Shown: positions 1,731 to 59,010 of the stretch, in pieces
How positions within the stretch are numbered: the first letter of the stretch is position 1
Layout of the letters: each line of letters opens with the position of its first letter
Virus record (IMG/VR): IMGVR_UViG_3300010167_000010
Coordinates: 128,001-192,000 of that record
Origin: a virus
Lineage: Duplodnaviria > Caudoviricetes
DNA: 64,000 nucleotides
Direction: 5' to 3' (one strand)
Notes under the pieces: model-generated
What the model was told of the DNA's origin: nothing
The model's input: the letters and a program-made list of their open reading frames with translations, nothing else
Database searches by the model: none
Position numbers and translations under genes: made by a program

Positions 1731-2820
1731 ATAAAGTTGAAAATTGATCATTTGTTGGAATAAGAATAGATTCTAATCCACCAAAAGTTAATGTTCCTTG
1801 ATATGGAAAACCATATTCATCAACTTGAGTAAAATCAAAACTCCAATCTACATTATTTACTACTGCTGGTCCCCATGTCATTCTACCCATTCGTATACAC
1901 AATGCACGAGAATCATTTGCTAAAGTAGTTCTAATAACTGTTTCAGTAGTTCTAATTAAATTAGCTTCTATATCAGTAACACGTCTAACTATACCACCAG
2001 CTGCTTCACCATCTTCACCCATTGATCTAGAGTCTGACATAATACCTCTTAGACCAACATCACTTAATGTGGTTAAAAAACCAGCTAAATAAGCTGGTGG
2101 TGTTGGTATCGGGCCCTTGAAATAGTTTTGTTCAGCTTCTAATGGTCTAAATAATCTAGCTAGGGTAATAATTGGACGAACAACTTCATGTTCACCAGAA
2201 AATATTCCTGCCTGCCCAAATTGAAAAGTAAACTTAAGAGATGATGATAGCGATATTGGATTGACTCCTGTCCATGCTGGTGCTTCTTTATATCGAGACA
2301 TAAATCTACCACCTGCTGGAATTGTTCCACCACCAGAACCAGATAACATTGCTACAGCTCTGGCTGCTTCTGCTAATTGTTGAACTTTACTTAATAATCC
2401 CTTATCACTTAATTCGGCCCAAGCTTTTGTATAATTATGTTTATAACCAAATGTAAATGATTTTTCTTCTGGATATAAAAATATATTAGGTGATACTTCA
2501 TTACCTCTCCATGAACCCCAAGCTGAATCATTTGGTTCTGGAGGAGTAGTTCTACCAGCCGAAACTACTGCTAGATCACAAATTTTAAATTTATTTATAA
2601 ATTCGTAAACATGACCTTTTTCATCTGAATAAAGACTACTCTCAAATGTATCGTGTAAAGGATTTTTAGTTCCTACTAATGTTGGGAAATTTTCTCTAGT
2701 ATGTGTATCAGTAGAGTATACTCTTTGAGATATTGTACCAGCTCTTTCTGTTGCTGCTACAGATGTATTAGAATTGGGTGTTCTTCTTAATTCACTATAA
2801 TTTACTCTTCCTATTGCCAT
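1720..2820 (-). CDS. Putative tail/baseplate structural protein
   Basis: Downstream of the tape-measure-like gene; C-terminal 'VNNVDWSFD...GFPYQGTLTF' resembles tube/baseplate beta folds (inference). Confidence 0.4.
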   Translation of the reverse strand: MAIGRVNYSELRRTPNSNTSVAATERAGTISQRVYSTDTHTRENFPTLVGTKNPLHDTFESSLYSDEKGHVYEFINKFKICDLAVVSAGRTTPPEPNDSAWGSWRGNEVSPNIFLYPEEKSFTFGYKHNYTKAWAELSDKGLLSKVQQLAEAARAVAMLSGSGGGTIPAGGRFMSRYKEAPAWTGVNPISLSSSLKFTFQFGQAGIFSGEHEVVRPIITLARLFRPLEAEQNYFKGPIPTPPAYLAGFLTTLSDVGLRGIMSDSRSMGEDGEAAGGIVRRVTDIEANLIRTTETVIRTTLANDSRALCIRMGRMTWGPAVVNNVDWSFDFTQVDEYGFPYQGTLTFGGLESILIPTNDQFSTLFRL

Positions 2821-2830
2821 TTAATTCTCC

Positions 2831-5800
2831 TTACGATGACCTAGATGGTGGTGCTGTCCAAGATTGTGGTTTTACAGCTAAACCTTTTAATATTTCACCA
2901 ACATCAGTTCTAATATCTTTTAATATTTCAGATGATTCACTTCCTTGTGCTCCTGGTCCTGCCGCACCTCCCATATTACTTACTGTATTTACTAATTTTA
3001 ATACTGAATCAGCATTTCTACCAAGATTACTTAATGTAGTTAGTACGTTACTTCTTCTATTTAATTTATCTAATTCACTAGCTGTTTCACCTAATCTTCT
3101 ATTTAATTGATTTAATCTATTTATAGCTGGATCTAATTCAGTCATTGGTTTGATTATATTTGTTCTGAAGTTTAAACTGAATTCACTAATAGCATCTGCT
3201 CTATTAGTTAATTCTTGAACTTTAATCATTGCAGCTAATAATGCATCGCTAGCAGTTTTTAAACTACTTGCTCCTCTAACTAAACCAGTAATAAAATTGT
3301 TTTGTTTTTGAGCTTCTTCACCAACTTTTCCTAAAGCTTTGAATACAGTTCCAATAGCCATAATTTTAGCTTCTGCAGCTGCAGTATCTTGTCCTTGCCA
3401 TAATCCTCTAAAGAATTGTCTAGCTCCGCCGCCGCCAGTATTTGCTTCTGCTAACATATTACTTGTCATATTTATTACTCTTTGTAAACTTGGTAGTGCA
3501 TTAGCTAAGGCTGTCATAGATTCTTCGATTGCTGCTGAAGTTCTAACTAAAGACATAATTGGTCTCTCTGCTGCTAATGCAACTAAACCTAGTGCACCTA
3601 ATGCTGCAATAATAAATATTAAAGACATTATTTTCCCCATTGCATTTAAGGCGCCCGACATTCCAGGTGCAATTTTTCCAATTAAACCCAATAATCCACT
3701 TGATGGTGCTTGATCATCTAAAAATACTCCAACAGCTGCTAATGCTCTACTAATAGCTGGCATTGCGGCCGCTAAAGAGTCCATTGCTGCAGGAACTGCT
3801 TCTGCAAATTTCTTTAATCCATTCATAAATGGCCATGCTACTGTTGCAACTATACCTAAAACTGCAATTAAAGCAATTATAATTATTAAACCAATAAGTC
3901 TACCTAAAAGCGAAATCATATTTCCAATTGGTTTCAAGTTAGGGTTTATTAAACCTAAGAAAGTTCCAAGTGCACTTTGCCCTTCACCTAATGCTGCCCA
4001 TACCGCATCAACACCTGAAACTATATCTCTCATAGCTTGTGCTAACATTCCCATTGCGATCGGAACAGCTTCAGCAAATTTCTTTAATCCTAACATTAAT
4101 GGCCAAGCAATAGTAGCTACTAAACCTAATACTGCTACTAATGCAATTATAATTATGAGACCAATAAGAGATCCTAAAATATTTATAACGCCGCCTAATG
4201 GTTTTAAGTCATCACTTAATGCACCTAATAATCCACCAATACCACCTTCACTATTTTCACCTAAAACAGCTGATACTTGTTTCATAGTTTCAGCAATAGA
4301 TTTTATAACGTTAACTAATAATGGAATAGCAACTAGAGCTAATAATCCAAATAATAATAAACCAAGCATTGGTAATACAGCAATTAAAGCAATAAAACCT
4401 ATAATTGCAAAAGCTAATATAACGAGAGCAATTGGTAATAATGCAAGAGCTACAGCAATAAACGCTCCAAAAGGTTGTGGAACGCCAGATAACCATTCGG
4501 GCGTTTCTACTCCTGCTAAGAAATCTCCCATTATAAAGTCCATTAATTTCAAAGTTTCTTTTAATGCTAATCTTAAGAAAATAACAGCAATAAAAATAAG
4601 TAATGAAACTAAAGTTAAAGCTAATACTGGAAATACTGCCATTTTAGCTAGAAAACCTAATATAGCGAATGCTACTAAAATTAAAGCCATAGTTATTACA
4701 CCAATTAAAATTGGTAATAATAATTTTGGATCAAAATGTCGTTGAATTAAAATTAAAGATATAGTCATTAAAATAACTGCAACAGCTATTTGAATGGCAA
4801 TGTCAGCAAAAAATTTCAATGGTATTTTTAATAAGAATGCAATTGTACCAAGAACCATTACACCTAATAAAAATAATGCGATTCCTAAAAGACCTTGTAA
4901 GGCTATTGGAATAACTATACTTGCAACTGCAGCTAACGCAGCGGCAATTAATAATCTTAAAAATACATGTGCCATATCCCCCATTGTTCTAACAAATAAA
5001 GGGGTTGGAAATTTTGATAATAAAAGTAATCCAAAAAACATCGGAATACATGCAATAATAAATAGAACAGATAATAATGCACCTAATGCTGCTGGTATTG
5101 CAAGAACGCCTGCTGCTATAGCAAATATAGCAGCAAATGTAATAGCTTTATATAATATAGCTAAATTTTTTGCTGTTTCACTCCCCATTTTCGCTAAAGG
5201 AGCAATTTTTGGCCAACCTAAAAGAGCAGCTAATAATAAAGAAATTAAAACGAATGGAATTAAGAGCATTGTAAAAACAGTTGCAGGGATTGCTAATGCT
5301 CCAGCAGCTATCGCATAAATTGTTGACCACATTAAAGATTTAAATATAATACCAATTGCAGCTGCACTTTCACTAGCTATTTTAACAGCCGCTGGATTAA
5401 AAAATGCAATTATATTTGCAATTAAAATTACTGCTAAAATAAAAGGTATCATTAATAGGGCAAATACTGTTGCAGGTATTGCTAACGCGCCTGCAGCTAA
5501 AACAGCAAAAATCGCTGTTTTTAATGCGACAAATATTTTAGAAACCGATTCAGCAAATAAAGCAATATCTTTTGCTGCTTCAGCTTGTTCTTTACCTACT
5601 ATTGGTATTTTCCCATCTGCATCTTTAAACAGGGCCTTCTTTAATGCTAAAATAAATTTACCTAATAAAGTAGCAATTACTGGAGCAACTAATAAAAAGG
5701 CAGTTACTGGAATTACATTTTTAGATAAACTTTCTAATGACTTAAATAATTCACTTAAACCTGTCGTTAAATCTTTTAACTTTGTTGAATCTAAAGTTGA

Positions 5801-21019: not shown

Positions 21020-21628
21020 ATGTCTAATAATATAGTTGGAATTTATAAAGTTACAAATTTAATTAATCAGAAGTTTTATATAGGTATGTCTAAAAATATT
21101 TTTAAAAGATGGAAAGTACATAAAAATTTAAAAAGAAAACTTAAAACATATTTTGATTTTGCTTTATTAAAATATGGAACAGAAAATTTTAAATTTGAAA
21201 TTATTGAAGAATGTGAAAGTGAAAATATTAATGAAAAAGAAATTTATTGGATTGCAAAATTAAAACCAGAGTATAATCTTACAAAAGGTGGGACAGGTGG
21301 TGATACTTGGTCTTTATTATCTGAAGAGAATAAAAAATTAAAAATTGAAAAATTAAGAAAAAGTTGTAAAATAAGTCATAATACTGAATCTTATAAAGAA
21401 TATGCAAAAAAAGCCGTATTAGGTAATAAAAATCCAATGCATAAAAATAACTTTACTTTTACACCCGAATTGCTAGAAAAATGGAGGCTTTCTCATTTAG
21501 GTGAAAAAAATGGAATGTATGGAAAAAAACGATATACTAACGGAAAAGAAAATATAGTAGGAATAGAATGCCCTCGAGGATTCAGGCCAGGCATAACCCA
21601 TTCCATTATTAATAAATCCAAACTCTAA
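21020..21628 (+). mobile_element. Free-standing GIY-YIG homing endonuclease
   Basis: GIYKVTN...FYIGMS...RW..H, E..WI, YNLTKGG, NUMOD3-like GNKNPM and GEKNGMYG; leader hairpin at 20958-20989. Confidence 0.9.
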
Positions 21629-36188: not shown

Positions 36189-38302
36189 TTATTTTTTCCT
36201 AAATAAAATTTTAATTTTTTAATAATTTTATTTATATCTAATGGTTTTCCAATATGATCATTCATACCAGCATCAATACAATCTTGAATATCACTACTTA
36301 AAACACTAGCTGTCATAGCTATAATTGGAATAGTTTTAGCATTATCTAAATTTAAATTTCTAATAGCCTTTGTTGCTTCTATTCCGTTCATTTCGGGCAT
36401 TTGAACATCCATAAAAATTATATTATATTTGTCGGGATTTTTAGTAAACATTTTTATTGCTTCTTTTCCATTAATTGCTACATCGATTTTTATATTTGTT
36501 GGTTCTAATAATGTAGTAATTATTTCCCTGTTTATCTCTATATCTTCTACCAGTAAAATAGTCATATCTTTTAAATCTACGTTTTCTTCATTATCATTTT
36601 TCATTGGAATTTTTTTAGTTGTTCCTTCTTTCATTTTAACTATAAAGATAAATGATGAACCCTTTTTATATTCAGATTCTACCCAAACTATACCATTCAT
36701 CATTTCAATAATATGTTTTGAAATAGATAAACCTAATCCAGTTCCGCCAAACTTTTTATAAGTATCTCTATCAGCTTGTTGAAATGATTTGAAAAGTTTA
36801 TCTTGTTGTTCTTGAGTTAAACCAATTCCAGTATCTATAATAGAAGTTTTAATAACACAGAAGTTACTTTCTCTAGAAAGTAATTTAGATACAATACTTA
36901 TTTTTCCATTTTCTGGAGTAAATTTAACAGCATTACTTAATAAGTTTATAATAACCTGTGCTAAACGTTGTTCATCTCCTACTAAAACTTGAGGAATATT
37001 TTTATCTATATCTAATTCTAATATTTGACTTCTTTCATTTATCTTTACACTATACAAATCTACAATATTTTGTATCATGTCTCTATAAACGAATTCTATA
37101 GAATTTAATTCTAATTTATTTGCTTCTATTTTTGATAAGTCTAAAATATCATTTATAATTCCCAATAAGTGTTCTGAAGCTTCATGTATTTTATTAAAAC
37201 AATATTCTTTCTTAGTTATATCTTCAGCACTTTTTCCAATTGAAGACATTCCAATAATAATATTTATTGGTGTACGTATTTCATGAGACATATTAGCTAA
37301 GAAAATACTTTTATATTCATTTTTTAAGTTAGCTTTAACTCTTTCTTTTTCAATTTTTATTAAAATTATAATTATAAATAACGAAAAGAATAAACTACAT
37401 ACTGATAAAACTATAACAAGATTATAAGAAGCTCTATAAAAATTCATTGTTGGAACTATTGTAGTTAAAAACCAATCATTTTCCATTCTCTTTATAAATA
37501 TAATACTCTTTTCATCTCTATAATTTATAAAATTATGATTATAAATTTCATCATATCTAATTGAAGCAAAACTAATTGCTGATAAAGATTCAATTTCTAT
37601 AAAAGATAAACCTATAAATTCTTTATTATGATGAATTAAAGTTCTAGAATCTCTGTAAACTAAAGTACTATAACCTACAGAATTAACTACAATAGAATTT
37701 AAAATTTCTTCTAAATCTGTTAAATCAACTCGTATTGCAACAACGCCTAACCAATCACCAAACTTATCATATATACTTCTAGAATAAATTACAACAAGAT
37801 TATGGGTTAAGATATCTGGGAAAGATAATGTTTCTATAATTTCATTATTATTTTTAGCATTTATAAACCAATCTCTAGTTGATGGCTCTATAGTATGTGG
37901 AATATTATCTATCCCAGCAAGATGATGGAATTTACCATCAATTAAAACATACCCAAAAAAACCATCTGGTTTAATATATTCTTTTCCATAAAATAAAAAT
38001 TGAGTATTTAAATATACCATATAATTTTCAATAGTTCTTATTACATCTTCTTCTTCATTTTCAAAAAAGTGATTATTTATTATATTTTCTATCGAAATTG
38101 CAAAACCGTCTAATACATATCTAGGACTTTTAAGTGTATATTCTACTTTTGCAACAGCAGTATTTAAAATTCCTTCGGCATTTGCTACTAAAAAATAGTT
38201 TATAGTTCTATTTATAAAATTAAAACTAATAAAAGCCATTAAAAAGAATGAAACTGCCACAATAAAAATCTGCAGAGTCAGAGTTTTAAAATTTTTCAAC
38301 AT
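36185..38302 (-). CDS. Hybrid sensor histidine kinase (TM-Cache-TM-HisKA-HATPase-REC)
   Basis: FLANMSHEIRTP, NLLSNAVKFT, DTGIG, GGTGLGL, LLVED, FMDVQMP, KP. Confidence 0.95.
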   Translation of the reverse strand: MLKNFKTLTLQIFIVAVSFFLMAFISFNFINRTINYFLVANAEGILNTAVAKVEYTLKSPRYVLDGFAISIENIINNHFFENEEEDVIRTIENYMVYLNTQFLFYGKEYIKPDGFFGYVLIDGKFHHLAGIDNIPHTIEPSTRDWFINAKNNNEIIETLSFPDILTHNLVVIYSRSIYDKFGDWLGVVAIRVDLTDLEEILNSIVVNSVGYSTLVYRDSRTLIHHNKEFIGLSFIEIESLSAISFASIRYDEIYNHNFINYRDEKSIIFIKRMENDWFLTTIVPTMNFYRASYNLVIVLSVCSLFFSLFIIIILIKIEKERVKANLKNEYKSIFLANMSHEIRTPINIIIGMSSIGKSAEDITKKEYCFNKIHEASEHLLGIINDILDLSKIEANKLELNSIEFVYRDMIQNIVDLYSVKINERSQILELDIDKNIPQVLVGDEQRLAQVIINLLSNAVKFTPENGKISIVSKLLSRESNFCVIKTSIIDTGIGLTQEQQDKLFKSFQQADRDTYKKFGGTGLGLSISKHIIEMMNGIVWVESEYKKGSSFIFIVKMKEGTTKKIPMKNDNEENVDLKDMTILLVEDIEINREIITTLLEPTNIKIDVAINGKEAIKMFTKNPDKYNIIFMDVQMPEMNGIEATKAIRNLNLDNAKTIPIIAMTASVLSSDIQDCIDAGMNDHIGKPLDINKIIKKLKFYLGKNK

Positions 38303-49864: not shown

Positions 49865-50058
49865 GGTTACGTAGTTTAAGGAAAATACTTATAATACCTT
49901 CGAGTGGGATAAGATTTAAGCCTGAAGTAGATAATACAAGAAGTAAGGTTCGCAAGTTAAATTTTTAGTATGATATGGTTTGGCGGCGCCGTTAATAAGC
50001 CACTCTGTAGAAATACGATCTTTTATAGGAGATGCTGGCTCGAGGCCAACCGTAATCA
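49865..50058 (+). ncRNA. tRNA-shaped RNA with a large insert replacing the anticodon loop
   Basis: Acceptor GGTTACG/CGTAATC+A, D arm, CTTATAA/TTATAGG stem, variable AGAT, T arm GCTGG-CTCGAGG-CCAAC; starts at the class M +1 position. Confidence 0.65.
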
Positions 50059-50060
50059 AA

Positions 50061-50330
50061 ATGAAAACAGTAGAAGAAATTTATTCTTATTTAGTTAACA
50101 TCAAAAATGAAGCATCAAAAATGAATGAAGATTCTTTCGATAAAACTAAAGCATTTAAATTTGTTTATAATCATATTCTAGATTTAATTGATGAACTAAA
50201 CTTTATTGATGAAGAAAATGAATTATTTGATGATGATAATTTTGATAGAAAACCAATAATAACTCAAAAGAAAAAAGAAGATAATGATTTATCTACTACT
50301 GGTAAAATAGATTTAGATGATCTTATTTAG
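50061..50330 (+). CDS. Small acidic hypothetical protein
   Basis: Start moved to ATG 50061; the upstream extension overlaps the RNA gene. Confidence 0.55.
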   Translation: MKTVEEIYSYLVNIKNEASKMNEDSFDKTKAFKFVYNHILDLIDELNFIDEENELFDDDNFDRKPIITQKKKEDNDLSTTGKIDLDDLI

Positions 50331-51352
50331 GACAAATAGCTCTATTTTGAAAACCAAATTTAAAAGCTTTTTCAGCTGATGATATATGTCCCTTTACATA
50401 TTTTTCTGCTGTTTCATACGGAAAATTTTTAATCCAATTTAAAGATTTTTTATAAGTATCTTTTTCTCTTTCAATTCCAATAAAATTACGATTACTAATA
50501 ATAGAAGAAATACCACTTGCACCACTACCCATAAATGGATCTAATACAGTTTCCCCTTCATTCGAAGATATCATCATTAACATTGATAATAATAAAATTG
50601 GCTTTTGGCATGAGTGAATAGCAGAATCGAATTTATTATTATATGATGGGTTTACAAAAAATGTTACATCAGAAGGATAACCATCAAATTTGAGTGGAAG
50701 TCCAGATGCAATGTCACATACCGTTCCCTTCTTTTGGGCTGTTTCTTCAAATTGGCATTCACTAGAAAATGCCATGATATTACCTAATGAAGTAAATCGT
50801 AATGGTGTTTTCCCATCTTCTCCATAGTCCCACCCTCGTTTTATTCCGCCTTTCATTTTATATGGTGCAATAACTTTTCGAAGATATTCTACAGAATTCC
50901 AAATATAATTTTTAGAATCTTTAGTAAGATGAAATATATCTTCTCGTAATGACTTTAATTTTTTAGTAGTTCCTCTTCCAGATTCTCTAGCATAAATAGC
51001 CCAATTTTCTAAATGATTAGTAAAACCTGTCATTTTAATTGCAGAAAACATTTCGTGTATTCTTGTTGGTCCAAAAAATACCCAACAAGTTCCGGTTGGT
51101 GTTAAAACTCTATAGATTTCATGTAACCATTTCGCAGTAAAGTGAATAAAATCTTCCGATGTTTTAAAAGTGTCCCAATCTGTTTCATTCTTATTGTGAT
51201 ACTTATTATTGAATTTAATTCCGTATGGAACTCACCTAAGGAGGGTCGGCTATAACACAGCCGACCGAATTATCTGGAAACTGTTTAAGAAAATGAAAAC
51301 AATCTCCATTATATAATTTTATATTAGAAGTATATAGATTTAATTCATTCAT
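50323..51352 (-). CDS. Beta-class N6A/N4C DNA methyltransferase interrupted by a 13-nt coding gap inside DPPY
   Basis: ORF1 51352-51239 (MNELNLY...GDCFHFLKQFPDNSVGCVIADPP), then TAG; the +1 frame resumes YGIKF...EIYRVLTPTG...HSCQKP...VLDPFMGSG. Confidence 0.8.
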
Positions 51353-51448
51353 AGTAATGAGTTTAAATCGTTATTTTTTAAAATCTTCTGACTATATTTA
51401 TAATTGAGGAATACTATTTTCTAGCCTCTTCCCAACAATGGAGAAAAA

Positions 51449-58026: not shown

Positions 58027-59010
58027 TTATGGTCTTCTATGGTCTTCTTTTTCCCAAGGTTGATGGCTTCCGTGGAAACCTACCCATCTTAATGACATTG
58101 TTTCATTTGTAACTAATCCAAATGGATTATTTATAGTTATTGCTTTTACATATGCATTAAAACCAATTGCTGTTGGTGTTAATGTTAAAGTCATTACTGG
58201 TGGAACTCCTTCGCCTGTTCCTTGAATAATTGTTTTATCTGTTTCTAATACGATGTCAACTTCACCATCATTATCAGTTATTGATTCGATAGTAAAATGC
58301 CAATCTGGGAAAAGTTGTTTAGAATAAAGAACTACTTTTCCTGCAAATGATGCCCAACCATCAAATTTGAAATCAAAATACCAACCTCTTCCGAGTTCAA
58401 GGTATCTACCATTTCTTAAAGTTGGATCAAATTCAAATCTTGCTGTATAAAAAATTAATGATGTAAATGGATCATATACTTCTATTGTAGTAACTTTTTG
58501 TGTAGAAAGTAATTGTTCTCCTTTAAACCATCCGACAAATTTCCACCCAAATGGCTCATGTGCTGTAAATATTACAGAAGTTCCATTTCTTACATCTGCT
58601 TGTGCAGGTACTGCGTAAGCTCCAGATTCAGCGGCGCCGGGTGGATCTATATGTACTTGAAAGCCTGTCATTCTAACTGGTGCTGATACAGCTATTTTTC
58701 CCTTAACAAATTTAATTGTTGTTGGTTCATCTGTGTCTTCACCAAAAACTCCTGGCATTGTTAAAATTTTAGATGCTTCTGCAATAGAATTAGCAACTAC
58801 AGATACTGGAAAATCTCCTTCTGGTGTTGAAAAATATCCTGTATATTGATTAAGATGTTCTACTTGAGTTTTTTGTTTTGGTCTTCTTTGTAACATATTT
58901 GGGTCTTCGATTGGTTCAGTTGGAATATGAAATCCTGGAGGTCCTGGAAATTTTGGACCTCCTGACATATTACCTGGATGACCTCTCGATACTGGTGTTT
59001 TATGACTCAT
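58027..59010 (-). CDS. Putative virion surface protein with an InlB B-repeat-like domain
   Basis: GTSVIFTA...GWKFVGW...YTARF; Pro-rich N-terminus; late promoter. Confidence 0.55.
   Translation of the reverse strand: MSHKTPVSRGHPGNMSGGPKFPGPPGFHIPTEPIEDPNMLQRRPKQKTQVEHLNQYTGYFSTPEGDFPVSVVANSIAEASKILTMPGVFGEDTDEPTTIKFVKGKIAVSAPVRMTGFQVHIDPPGAAESGAYAVPAQADVRNGTSVIFTAHEPFGWKFVGWFKGEQLLSTQKVTTIEVYDPFTSLIFYTARFEFDPTLRNGRYLELGRGWYFDFKFDGWASFAGKVVLYSKQLFPDWHFTIESITDNDGEVDIVLETDKTIIQGTGEGVPPVMTLTLTPTAIGFNAYVKAITINNPFGLVTNETMSLRWVGFHGSHQPWEKEDHRRP

Follow-up and report, generated by a model that had tools for sequence, protein, structure and literature searches.

A 13-nt insert in the catalytic motif of a phage DNA methyltransferase gene: a candidate site of short translational bypassing

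Here we describe a phage gene for a beta-class N6/N4 DNA methyltransferase in which the catalytic (D/S)PPY motif is not contiguous: its DPP and its Y lie 13 nt apart with a stop codon between them, and only skipping of the gap would make the motif whole. The insert is genuine, yet it is a single case, private to one strain. Judging from the layout of the sequence, we give about even chances to a functional gene read by a short translational bypass that is programmed, or at least selected. A recently broken gene is almost as likely as a functional hop, and what probability remains falls to removal of the 13 nt from RNA or DNA, to an enzyme made in two pieces, or to an artefact. The window analysed (64,000 nt) comprises bases 128001–192000 of an IMG/VR virus record of 329,018 bp, which is complete, has direct terminal repeats and has a G+C content of 28.5%. 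The features of the locus are the following.

51239–51352, minus strand: ORF1, the first 38 methyltransferase codons (M...VIADPP), with its ATG at 51352; aligns with residues 1–38 of the intact homologues P0002, P0003 and P0006
51244–51266, minus strand: GC-rich hairpin of 10 bp with a 3-nt loop, within codons 29–37, its 3′ end 2 nt before the putative take-off codon
51239–51241, minus strand: putative take-off codon CCT (Pro38, the second P of DPPY)
51226–51238, minus strand: 13-nt coding gap ending in CCA, a clean 13-column gap against all relatives
51236–51238, minus strand: in-frame TAG right after the take-off codon
51232–51237, minus strand: AGGTGA, Shine–Dalgarno (SD)-like, separated by 3 nt from the landing codon; would match the complement of the 16S 3′ tail over 6 nt
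51226–51228, minus strand: putative landing codon CCA, the sole CCN between the stop and the resume codon
51218–51231, minus strand: weak 5-bp hairpin in the centroid structure, whose loop and upper stem take in the landing and resume codons; may be due to chance
50323–51225, minus strand: ORF2, 300 codons from TAC (the Y of DPPY) to TAA, matching PF01555

Read along the minus strand, the junction is GAC CCT CCT TAG GTGAGTT CCA TAC GGA, in which GAC CCT CCT (51247–51239) are codons 36–38 of ORF1; ORF2 lies in the +1 frame relative to ORF1 and resumes at Y-G-I-K. A preliminary description, made from the letters alone, had proposed a ribosomal hop at this point, and the anatomy on which it relied was borne out: the 38-codon ORF starts at ATG 51352 and ends D-P-P-stop, Pro codons CCT and CCA stand at take-off and landing with AGGTGA in the gap, and skipping the 13 nt (51238–51226) gives a 338-aa protein with a contiguous DPPY whose two halves align end to end with homologues. 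ORF2 matches PF01555 (N6_N4_Mtase; E = 9e-31, 107.9 bits against a cut-off of 26.7) and is 82% identical to the intact proteins P0002 and P0003. A search of 5.8 billion proteins returned intact homologues of 336–340 aa at 76–82% identity, all with a contiguous ...DPPYGI... (or DAPYGI). In a joint alignment ORF1 and ORF2 abut between DPP and Y with zero residues missing or extra, and together they retain every column that is identical across eight aligned homologues; no second lesion (further stops, frameshifts or lost invariant residues) was found in the gene beyond the 13-nt gap. The relatives in the PDB, found via P0002, include MboIIA, CcrM and RsrI, and the rejoined protein is an ordinary member of the beta-class N6/N4 DNA methyltransferases (M.MboIIA 1G60, CcrM 6PBD, M.RsrI 1EG2; PF01555), with DPPY near its N-terminus and the SAM-binding motif near its C-terminus as in that class. 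Unlike in its relatives, the coding sequence here is interrupted within DPPY. It is the sole PF01555 gene of the phage, and the genome has no PF02086 (Dam-type) gene.

Public protein catalogues hold the gene only as a 242-aa fragment (P0005), called from the internal ATG at 51051 and present on 7 contigs from at least three samples. Besides this call of the phage's own gene, the protein search revealed no other split form among close homologues; two short homologues considered as further interrupted genes (P0030, P0041) proved to be intact genes with mis-called starts.

The preliminary description had also raised the doubt that the gap was an assembly error. A stretch of 251 nt including the gap is 100% identical in a megahit contig from ENA (329,032 bp) and in the Logan contig of SRR5215140, and since the insert sequence is thus identical in three assemblies, an assembly slip is unlikely. 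All carrier contigs represent one strain (0 differences over 6.7 kb and 5.0 kb), so the three assemblies give no evolutionary information. Such information comes from the six relatives with DNA (L004/L005, L006/L007, L008, L011, L012 and L014; 74–82% protein identity), every one of which lacks the gap and reads CC(G/T) CC(T/G) TA(C/T) GG contiguously where the insert sits, directly before TA(C/T). The Pro–stop–gap–Pro layout whose conservation had been looked for is therefore found in none of them. A metagenome scan added only one further relative, also without the gap. The relatives were found with P0002 as the query; searches of viral contigs with the window protein or with a ten-row alignment returned nothing, and there were no cultured relatives in INPHARED. 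Pattern scans of IMG/VR for the same layout (D-P-P-TAG/TAA, a gap of 4–30 nt, then P-Y-G-I/M) gave chance matches only, outside methyltransferase genes. As for the source of the 13 nt, no copy, near-copy or template was found in the genome or the window. The boundaries of the insert can be slid by three bases, so that the 'matched codons' amount to a CC direct repeat, which could be indel microhomology.

Conventional ways of reading through the interruption are closed. Stop usage in 275 long ORFs (TAA 183, TAG 48, TGA 44) shows TAG and TGA to be normal stops, and none of the 22 phage tRNA genes encodes a suppressor, so an alternative code or a suppressor can be rejected; recoding of TGA as tryptophan would not restore DPPY. 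Read-through of the TAG does meet a TAA, as had been claimed, after six more codons rather than the five first given. A plain +1 frameshift fails, again in line with the earlier claim, and so does a −2 shift, since the target frame reads AGG TGA and this TGA (51234–51232, contained in the SD-like AGGTGA) sits past the zero-frame TAG. With frameshifting and read-through closed, a hop from Pro(CCT) to Pro(CCA) is the only translational route to the full enzyme. Both codons are readable by tRNA-Pro(UGG), with TAC next in line, and the phage carries a gene for this tRNA at genome 119551–119623, outside the window. CCA is the perfect Watson–Crick partner of its anticodon and accounts for 61% of phage Pro codons. 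At the take-off position four relatives have CCT as well (L004, L006, L012 and L014) and L011 has CCG. Within ORF2 the first possible start (ATG, GTG or TTG) comes only after 58 codons, at 51051; six long frames in the genome are without an early start codon, and ORF2 is the only one among them that looks like a real gene, which argues against general decay of the genome.

The rarity of the layout can be gauged from two million random 13-mers drawn from the genome. Of these, 7.4% have a stop as their first codon and 2.5% have CCN as their last three bases; the two coincide in 0.19%, and in 0.002% a 6-nt match to the 16S 3′-tail complement is present as well, figures to be read with the caveat that these bypass-like features were singled out post hoc from a very large scan. 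As for SD usage in the phage, AGGAG lies upstream of 21% of starts against a background of 0.8%, and GGTGA never serves as a start SD among phage genes, which counts against the hop.

The strongest item among the unusual features is the hairpin, which lies just ahead of the take-off codon as first described. With 8 of its 10 bp perfect Watson–Crick and six G–C pairs, it folds at −16.7 kcal/mol (z-score −3.2 in its 111-nt context); in five relatives the corresponding stretch of the alignment gives 0 to −4.8 kcal/mol. The hairpin is specific to this lineage and came into being with the gap, which favours a hop. The changes that build the stem relative to the closest relative, L011, are TCA to TCG, ATA to GTC, AAC to GGC and GCA to GCC, and each of the four resulting codons makes up 3–8% of its own codon family in the phage. 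The five GC3 codons in a run of eight at the hairpin are not unusual for this gene, and clustering of such rare codons was discarded as independent evidence. Neither arm recurs in the genome. The 329 kb contain 21 GC-rich perfect 8-bp hairpins, where shuffles yield ~0.1; a T tail of the terminator kind follows about 14 of them, and several of the others overlap possible ORFs. The hairpin described here lies inside a gene and has no T tail, for which reason a role as a terminator was rejected, and the hairpin and insert region has no Rfam match. A perfect palindrome can form in a single template-switch step.

If ribosomes do cross the gap, the following course of events could account for it. 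Having translated the 38 codons, a ribosome would hold peptidyl-tRNA-Pro on CCU in its P site while UAG occupied the A site. The C-terminal Pro-Pro would make release slow, and the tRNA with anticodon UGG, pairing weakly with CCU, would detach; termination after a C-terminal Pro is especially slow, and near-cognate tRNA-Pro dissociates easily from the P site (PMC3082878). At that moment the 3′ arm of the hairpin, at −12 to −3 from the take-off codon, would be inside the ribosome, with the 5′ arm and loop out or nearly out, such that each nucleotide of forward slip would permit one more pair and the stem would be complete after ~10–13 nt. The zipping of the hairpin arm would in this way pull the mRNA through ~10–13 nt between take-off and landing, a distance that matches the gap. 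Given this agreement between the length needed to complete the stem and that of the gap, the refolding model would fit a published proposal on unidirectional forward bypassing, in which the driving force is base pairing in the mRNA as it exits and is spent at the landing site (bioRxiv 10.1101/2024.12.09.627546). Pairing of the anti-SD tail with AGGUGA could then keep CCA in the P site; landing is aided by an SD that precedes the landing site, and the mini-SD of T4 lies 6 nt before it (bioRxiv 10.1101/2022.08.31.505936). The same tRNA would then re-pair, exchanging a U:U wobble on CCU for a perfect match on CCA, and decoding would restart at UAC, restoring DPPY and yielding the 338-aa beta-class N6/N4 DNA methyltransferase. 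The hop product would carry the tryptic junction peptide QFPDNSVGCVIADPPYGIK.

More tentatively, and with somewhat less than even confidence, we suggest that one phage lineage may have evolved, de novo, a minimal bypass module complete in itself. Its parts would be a stop after Pro-Pro, a better-fitting landing codon and a 5′ hairpin that meters out ~13 nt, neither a take-off stem-loop nor a special nascent peptide being needed, and the insert may persist by breaking a conserved DNA target of roaming GIY-YIG endonucleases without loss of the enzyme.

Like the 50-nt bypass of T4 gene 60 and its MobA-cassette homologues (Manning & Atkins, bioRxiv 10.1101/2022.08.31.505936; Wills et al., bioRxiv 10.1101/2024.12.09.627546), the site has a UAG right after the take-off codon, a next codon that resumes in another frame, a 5′ stem-loop that would form as the mRNA exits the ribosome and an SD-like element shortly before the landing codon; in both cases the insert splits a conserved motif and is absent from relatives. 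The differences are considerable. The gap is 13 rather than 50 nt and the codons are Pro rather than Gly; the hairpin lies 2 nt from take-off where that of T4 lies 9 nt away, and the SD-like string 3 nt from landing rather than 6; the gene encodes a methyltransferase instead of a topoisomerase (Topo2L). Two absences count against a hop: there is no take-off or A-site stem-loop, no stem in the fold including CCT-TAG, and there is no nascent-peptide signal of the KKYK type that precedes take-off by ~30 residues in T4, the 38-aa N-terminus being an ordinary methyltransferase N-terminus common to relatives that lack the gap. Nor does the site resemble the T4/MobA cassette in having an adjoining homing endonuclease or any sequence homology, the GIY-YIG genes of the phage lying elsewhere. 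Since gap length, take-off stem-loop, nascent peptide, host gene and endonuclease linkage all fail to agree, the site falls outside the T4 gene 60/MobA cassette family, alike as the core grammar is.

The nearest precedent is the type of 7–10-nt gap seen in the large terminase gene of Streptomyces phage phiHau3, which has two 10-nt gaps, and in two prophages with 7-nt gaps (Antonov et al. 2023, PMC10732093; Atkins et al. 2016, PMC5009743). The phiHau3 gaps, for which a role of a 5′ stem-loop and an SD was suggested, were put forward in 2013 and received partial support in 2023; a UAA version in E. coli gave the junction peptide by mass spectrometry (PMC10732093). The two have in common a short frame-breaking insert (~7–13 nt) between sequences that adjoin each other in homologues, a slowly decoded codon where the insert begins, and a 5′ stem-loop and SD nearby, although in different positions; the phiHau3 gaps, too, occur in only a few family members. 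There, however, the trigger is a rare sense codon, UUA, tied to the bldA tRNA of the host, whereas a genuine stop following Pro-Pro would take that role here; the SD precedes the gap in phiHau3, and the SD-like string is inside it in the methyltransferase gene; and host and gene family are unrelated. The description of the methyltransferase locus as a new bypassing site holds in part: the layout is far from random and a hop is the only route to the full enzyme, but no conservation is seen. Nor is the site wholly new in kind, 7–10-nt gaps with a 5′ stem-loop and an SD having been proposed, on some experimental evidence, for the phiHau3 terminase (PMC10732093). Shorter counterparts of gene 60 with matched landing codons have long been expected (PMC5009743). 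The mitochondrial 'byps' of Magnusiomyces capitatus and synthetic stop-hops in E. coli are similar in that short inserts are skipped between matched or near-matched codons at an undecodable or slow A-site codon (PMC5009743). Unlike the methyltransferase insert, byps are numerous, mobile and largely context-independent and are read by a specialised mitochondrial ribosome, and E. coli stop-hops, unlike the hop proposed here, are low-level and unselected (PMC5009743).

The main rival of a functional bypass, to which we assign a substantial probability that still falls short of even, is that the 13-nt insertion recently killed the methyltransferase of this strain and that the bypass-like features are coincidences or by-products. 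The CC would then be indel microhomology, the stop and SD-like string could be left over from a gene junction or from an endonuclease cassette since lost, and the hairpin could be the product of a single template switch at a quasi-palindrome or have a function unrelated to recoding. Such a break fits the absence of the gap from every relative and the derivation of all carriers from one strain. Methyltransferases are often dispensable, and free-standing GIY-YIG genes are mobile in this phage group, which makes scars plausible. Nor does the good state of the gene tell against it: the two halves are indeed intact, as had been put forward against decay, but intact halves are also what a young break would leave. 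The substitution record shows no detectable signal of continued constraint. Pairwise dN/dS is ~0.1 with dS saturated, a value that mostly reflects time before the insertion, and the 16 synonymous and 18 non-synonymous changes specific to the window phage are within the range of its relatives and compatible with either kept or relaxed constraint; a young break would look the same. What speaks for the bypass over a chance break is the joint rarity of a stop-first and CCN-last insert (0.19%), to which a lineage-specific hairpin of −16.7 kcal/mol 2 nt before the break adds a further coincidence, estimated at ~1e-4 to 1e-3. In addition, a break would have had to arise from an insert with no local or genomic template, in a genome that contains no other clear frame-broken gene in 329 kb.

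Two further readings are far less probable. The 13 nt might be removed or absent at the level of the nucleic acid, through cutting and religation of the mRNA (a micro-intron) or through a subpopulation of insert-free genomes, which we regard as quite improbable: 13 nt cannot form a group I or II intron, Rfam offers no match, three assemblers give the same sequence, and no flanking repeat longer than CC is available for precise excision. Slightly less probable again is re-initiation, in which the 38-aa peptide and a separately initiated C-terminal protein would assemble into a two-piece enzyme, AGGTGA acting as the SD of that C-terminal protein. Phage genes in pieces are known and the SD-like string does lie within the gap, but no ATG, GTG or TTG follows for 58 codons past it, the cut would fall inside the catalytic DPPY loop, and GGTGA is never a start SD in this phage.

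What a functional insert might be good for is a matter on which the surroundings of the gene in related phages may bear. In L012 a GIY-YIG/NUMOD1 endonuclease gene (2135–2953, minus strand) lies 33 nt upstream of the methyltransferase start, filling the slot between a 5′-3′ exonuclease gene and the methyltransferase gene. L008 is of the same phage type: its protein P0007 also occurs on a 50.7-kb contig, where a GIY-YIG gene adjoins that of the methyltransferase. The methyltransferase genes of L004 and L011 adjoin the same 5′-3′ exonuclease gene; the slot holds an MCP gene in the window phage and in L004 and is empty in L011. It is thus variable, being occupied by GIY-YIG, MCP or nothing in different phages. 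The window phage has three GIY-YIG genes elsewhere, at window 21026–21430 (plus strand) and, outside the window, at genome 30680–31012 and 36636–37211; they are 40–46% identical to that of L012, and the copy at 36636 has two TAA stops in its match. In T4 the bypass insert protects gene 60 from the phage's own homing endonuclease. By analogy, it is possible, if speculative, that the insert breaks a conserved DNA target of free-standing GIY-YIG endonucleases, the DPPY-coding stretch being conserved at the nucleotide level. A sliding-identity scan showed no sign of a co-conversion tract around the gap; a stretch of low identity at nt 46–105 was considered as one and rejected, as it is common to comparisons among the relatives themselves. 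Throttling of methyltransferase output, the purpose first suggested for the hop, found no support.

Natural translational bypassing has been documented in very few systems, of which the best studied, T4 gene 60, is elaborate. If the hop occurs, a 13-nt site with four short parts (Pro-Pro-stop, matched landing codon, 5′ hairpin and SD-like string) would be a compact test bed, and would permit testing of whether refolding of the exiting mRNA drives forward sliding and sets its distance. If the gene is merely a fresh pseudogene, the site is of little interest. For annotation, genes with short gaps are invisible to standard gene calling, and conserved phage genes with gaps of this kind may be routinely discarded as pseudogenes.

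Several minor observations concern the locus and the genome at large. The methyltransferase gene has the MCP gene and a small ORF as its neighbours; the latter, a 116-aa ORF at 49980–50330 (plus strand) without a Pfam match, overlaps the methyltransferase 3′ end tail to tail by 8 nt (50323–50330). At the other end of the gene no SD precedes the ATG (region 51353–51375, and the same place in relatives). The string TTTAAACT(C/T)A(T/C)TA(T/C) lies there instead (51353–51375, minus strand), 2–4 nt 5′ of the ATG; it also occurs in L004, L006, L011, L012, L014 and L009, and persists where protein identity falls to 51%. It could act as an early promoter common to these phages, as a leader, or as a start signal that works without an SD. 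The phage tRNA genes lie outside the window, at genome 25080–42142, 119551–120384 and 224695, with tRNA-Pro(UGG) and tRNA-Gln(UUG) apart from the main cluster; they include two tRNA-Lys(UUU) and three tRNA-Arg, and there is also one tRNA-Ile(UAU)-like gene. Another GC-rich hairpin, at window 58937–58962, has an 8-bp perfect stem that includes GGAGG, folds at −14.6 kcal/mol and has no T tail. It falls within the first ~25 codons of a 327-aa ORF (58027–59010, minus strand), where it may conceal a more internal start site or have a regulatory role.
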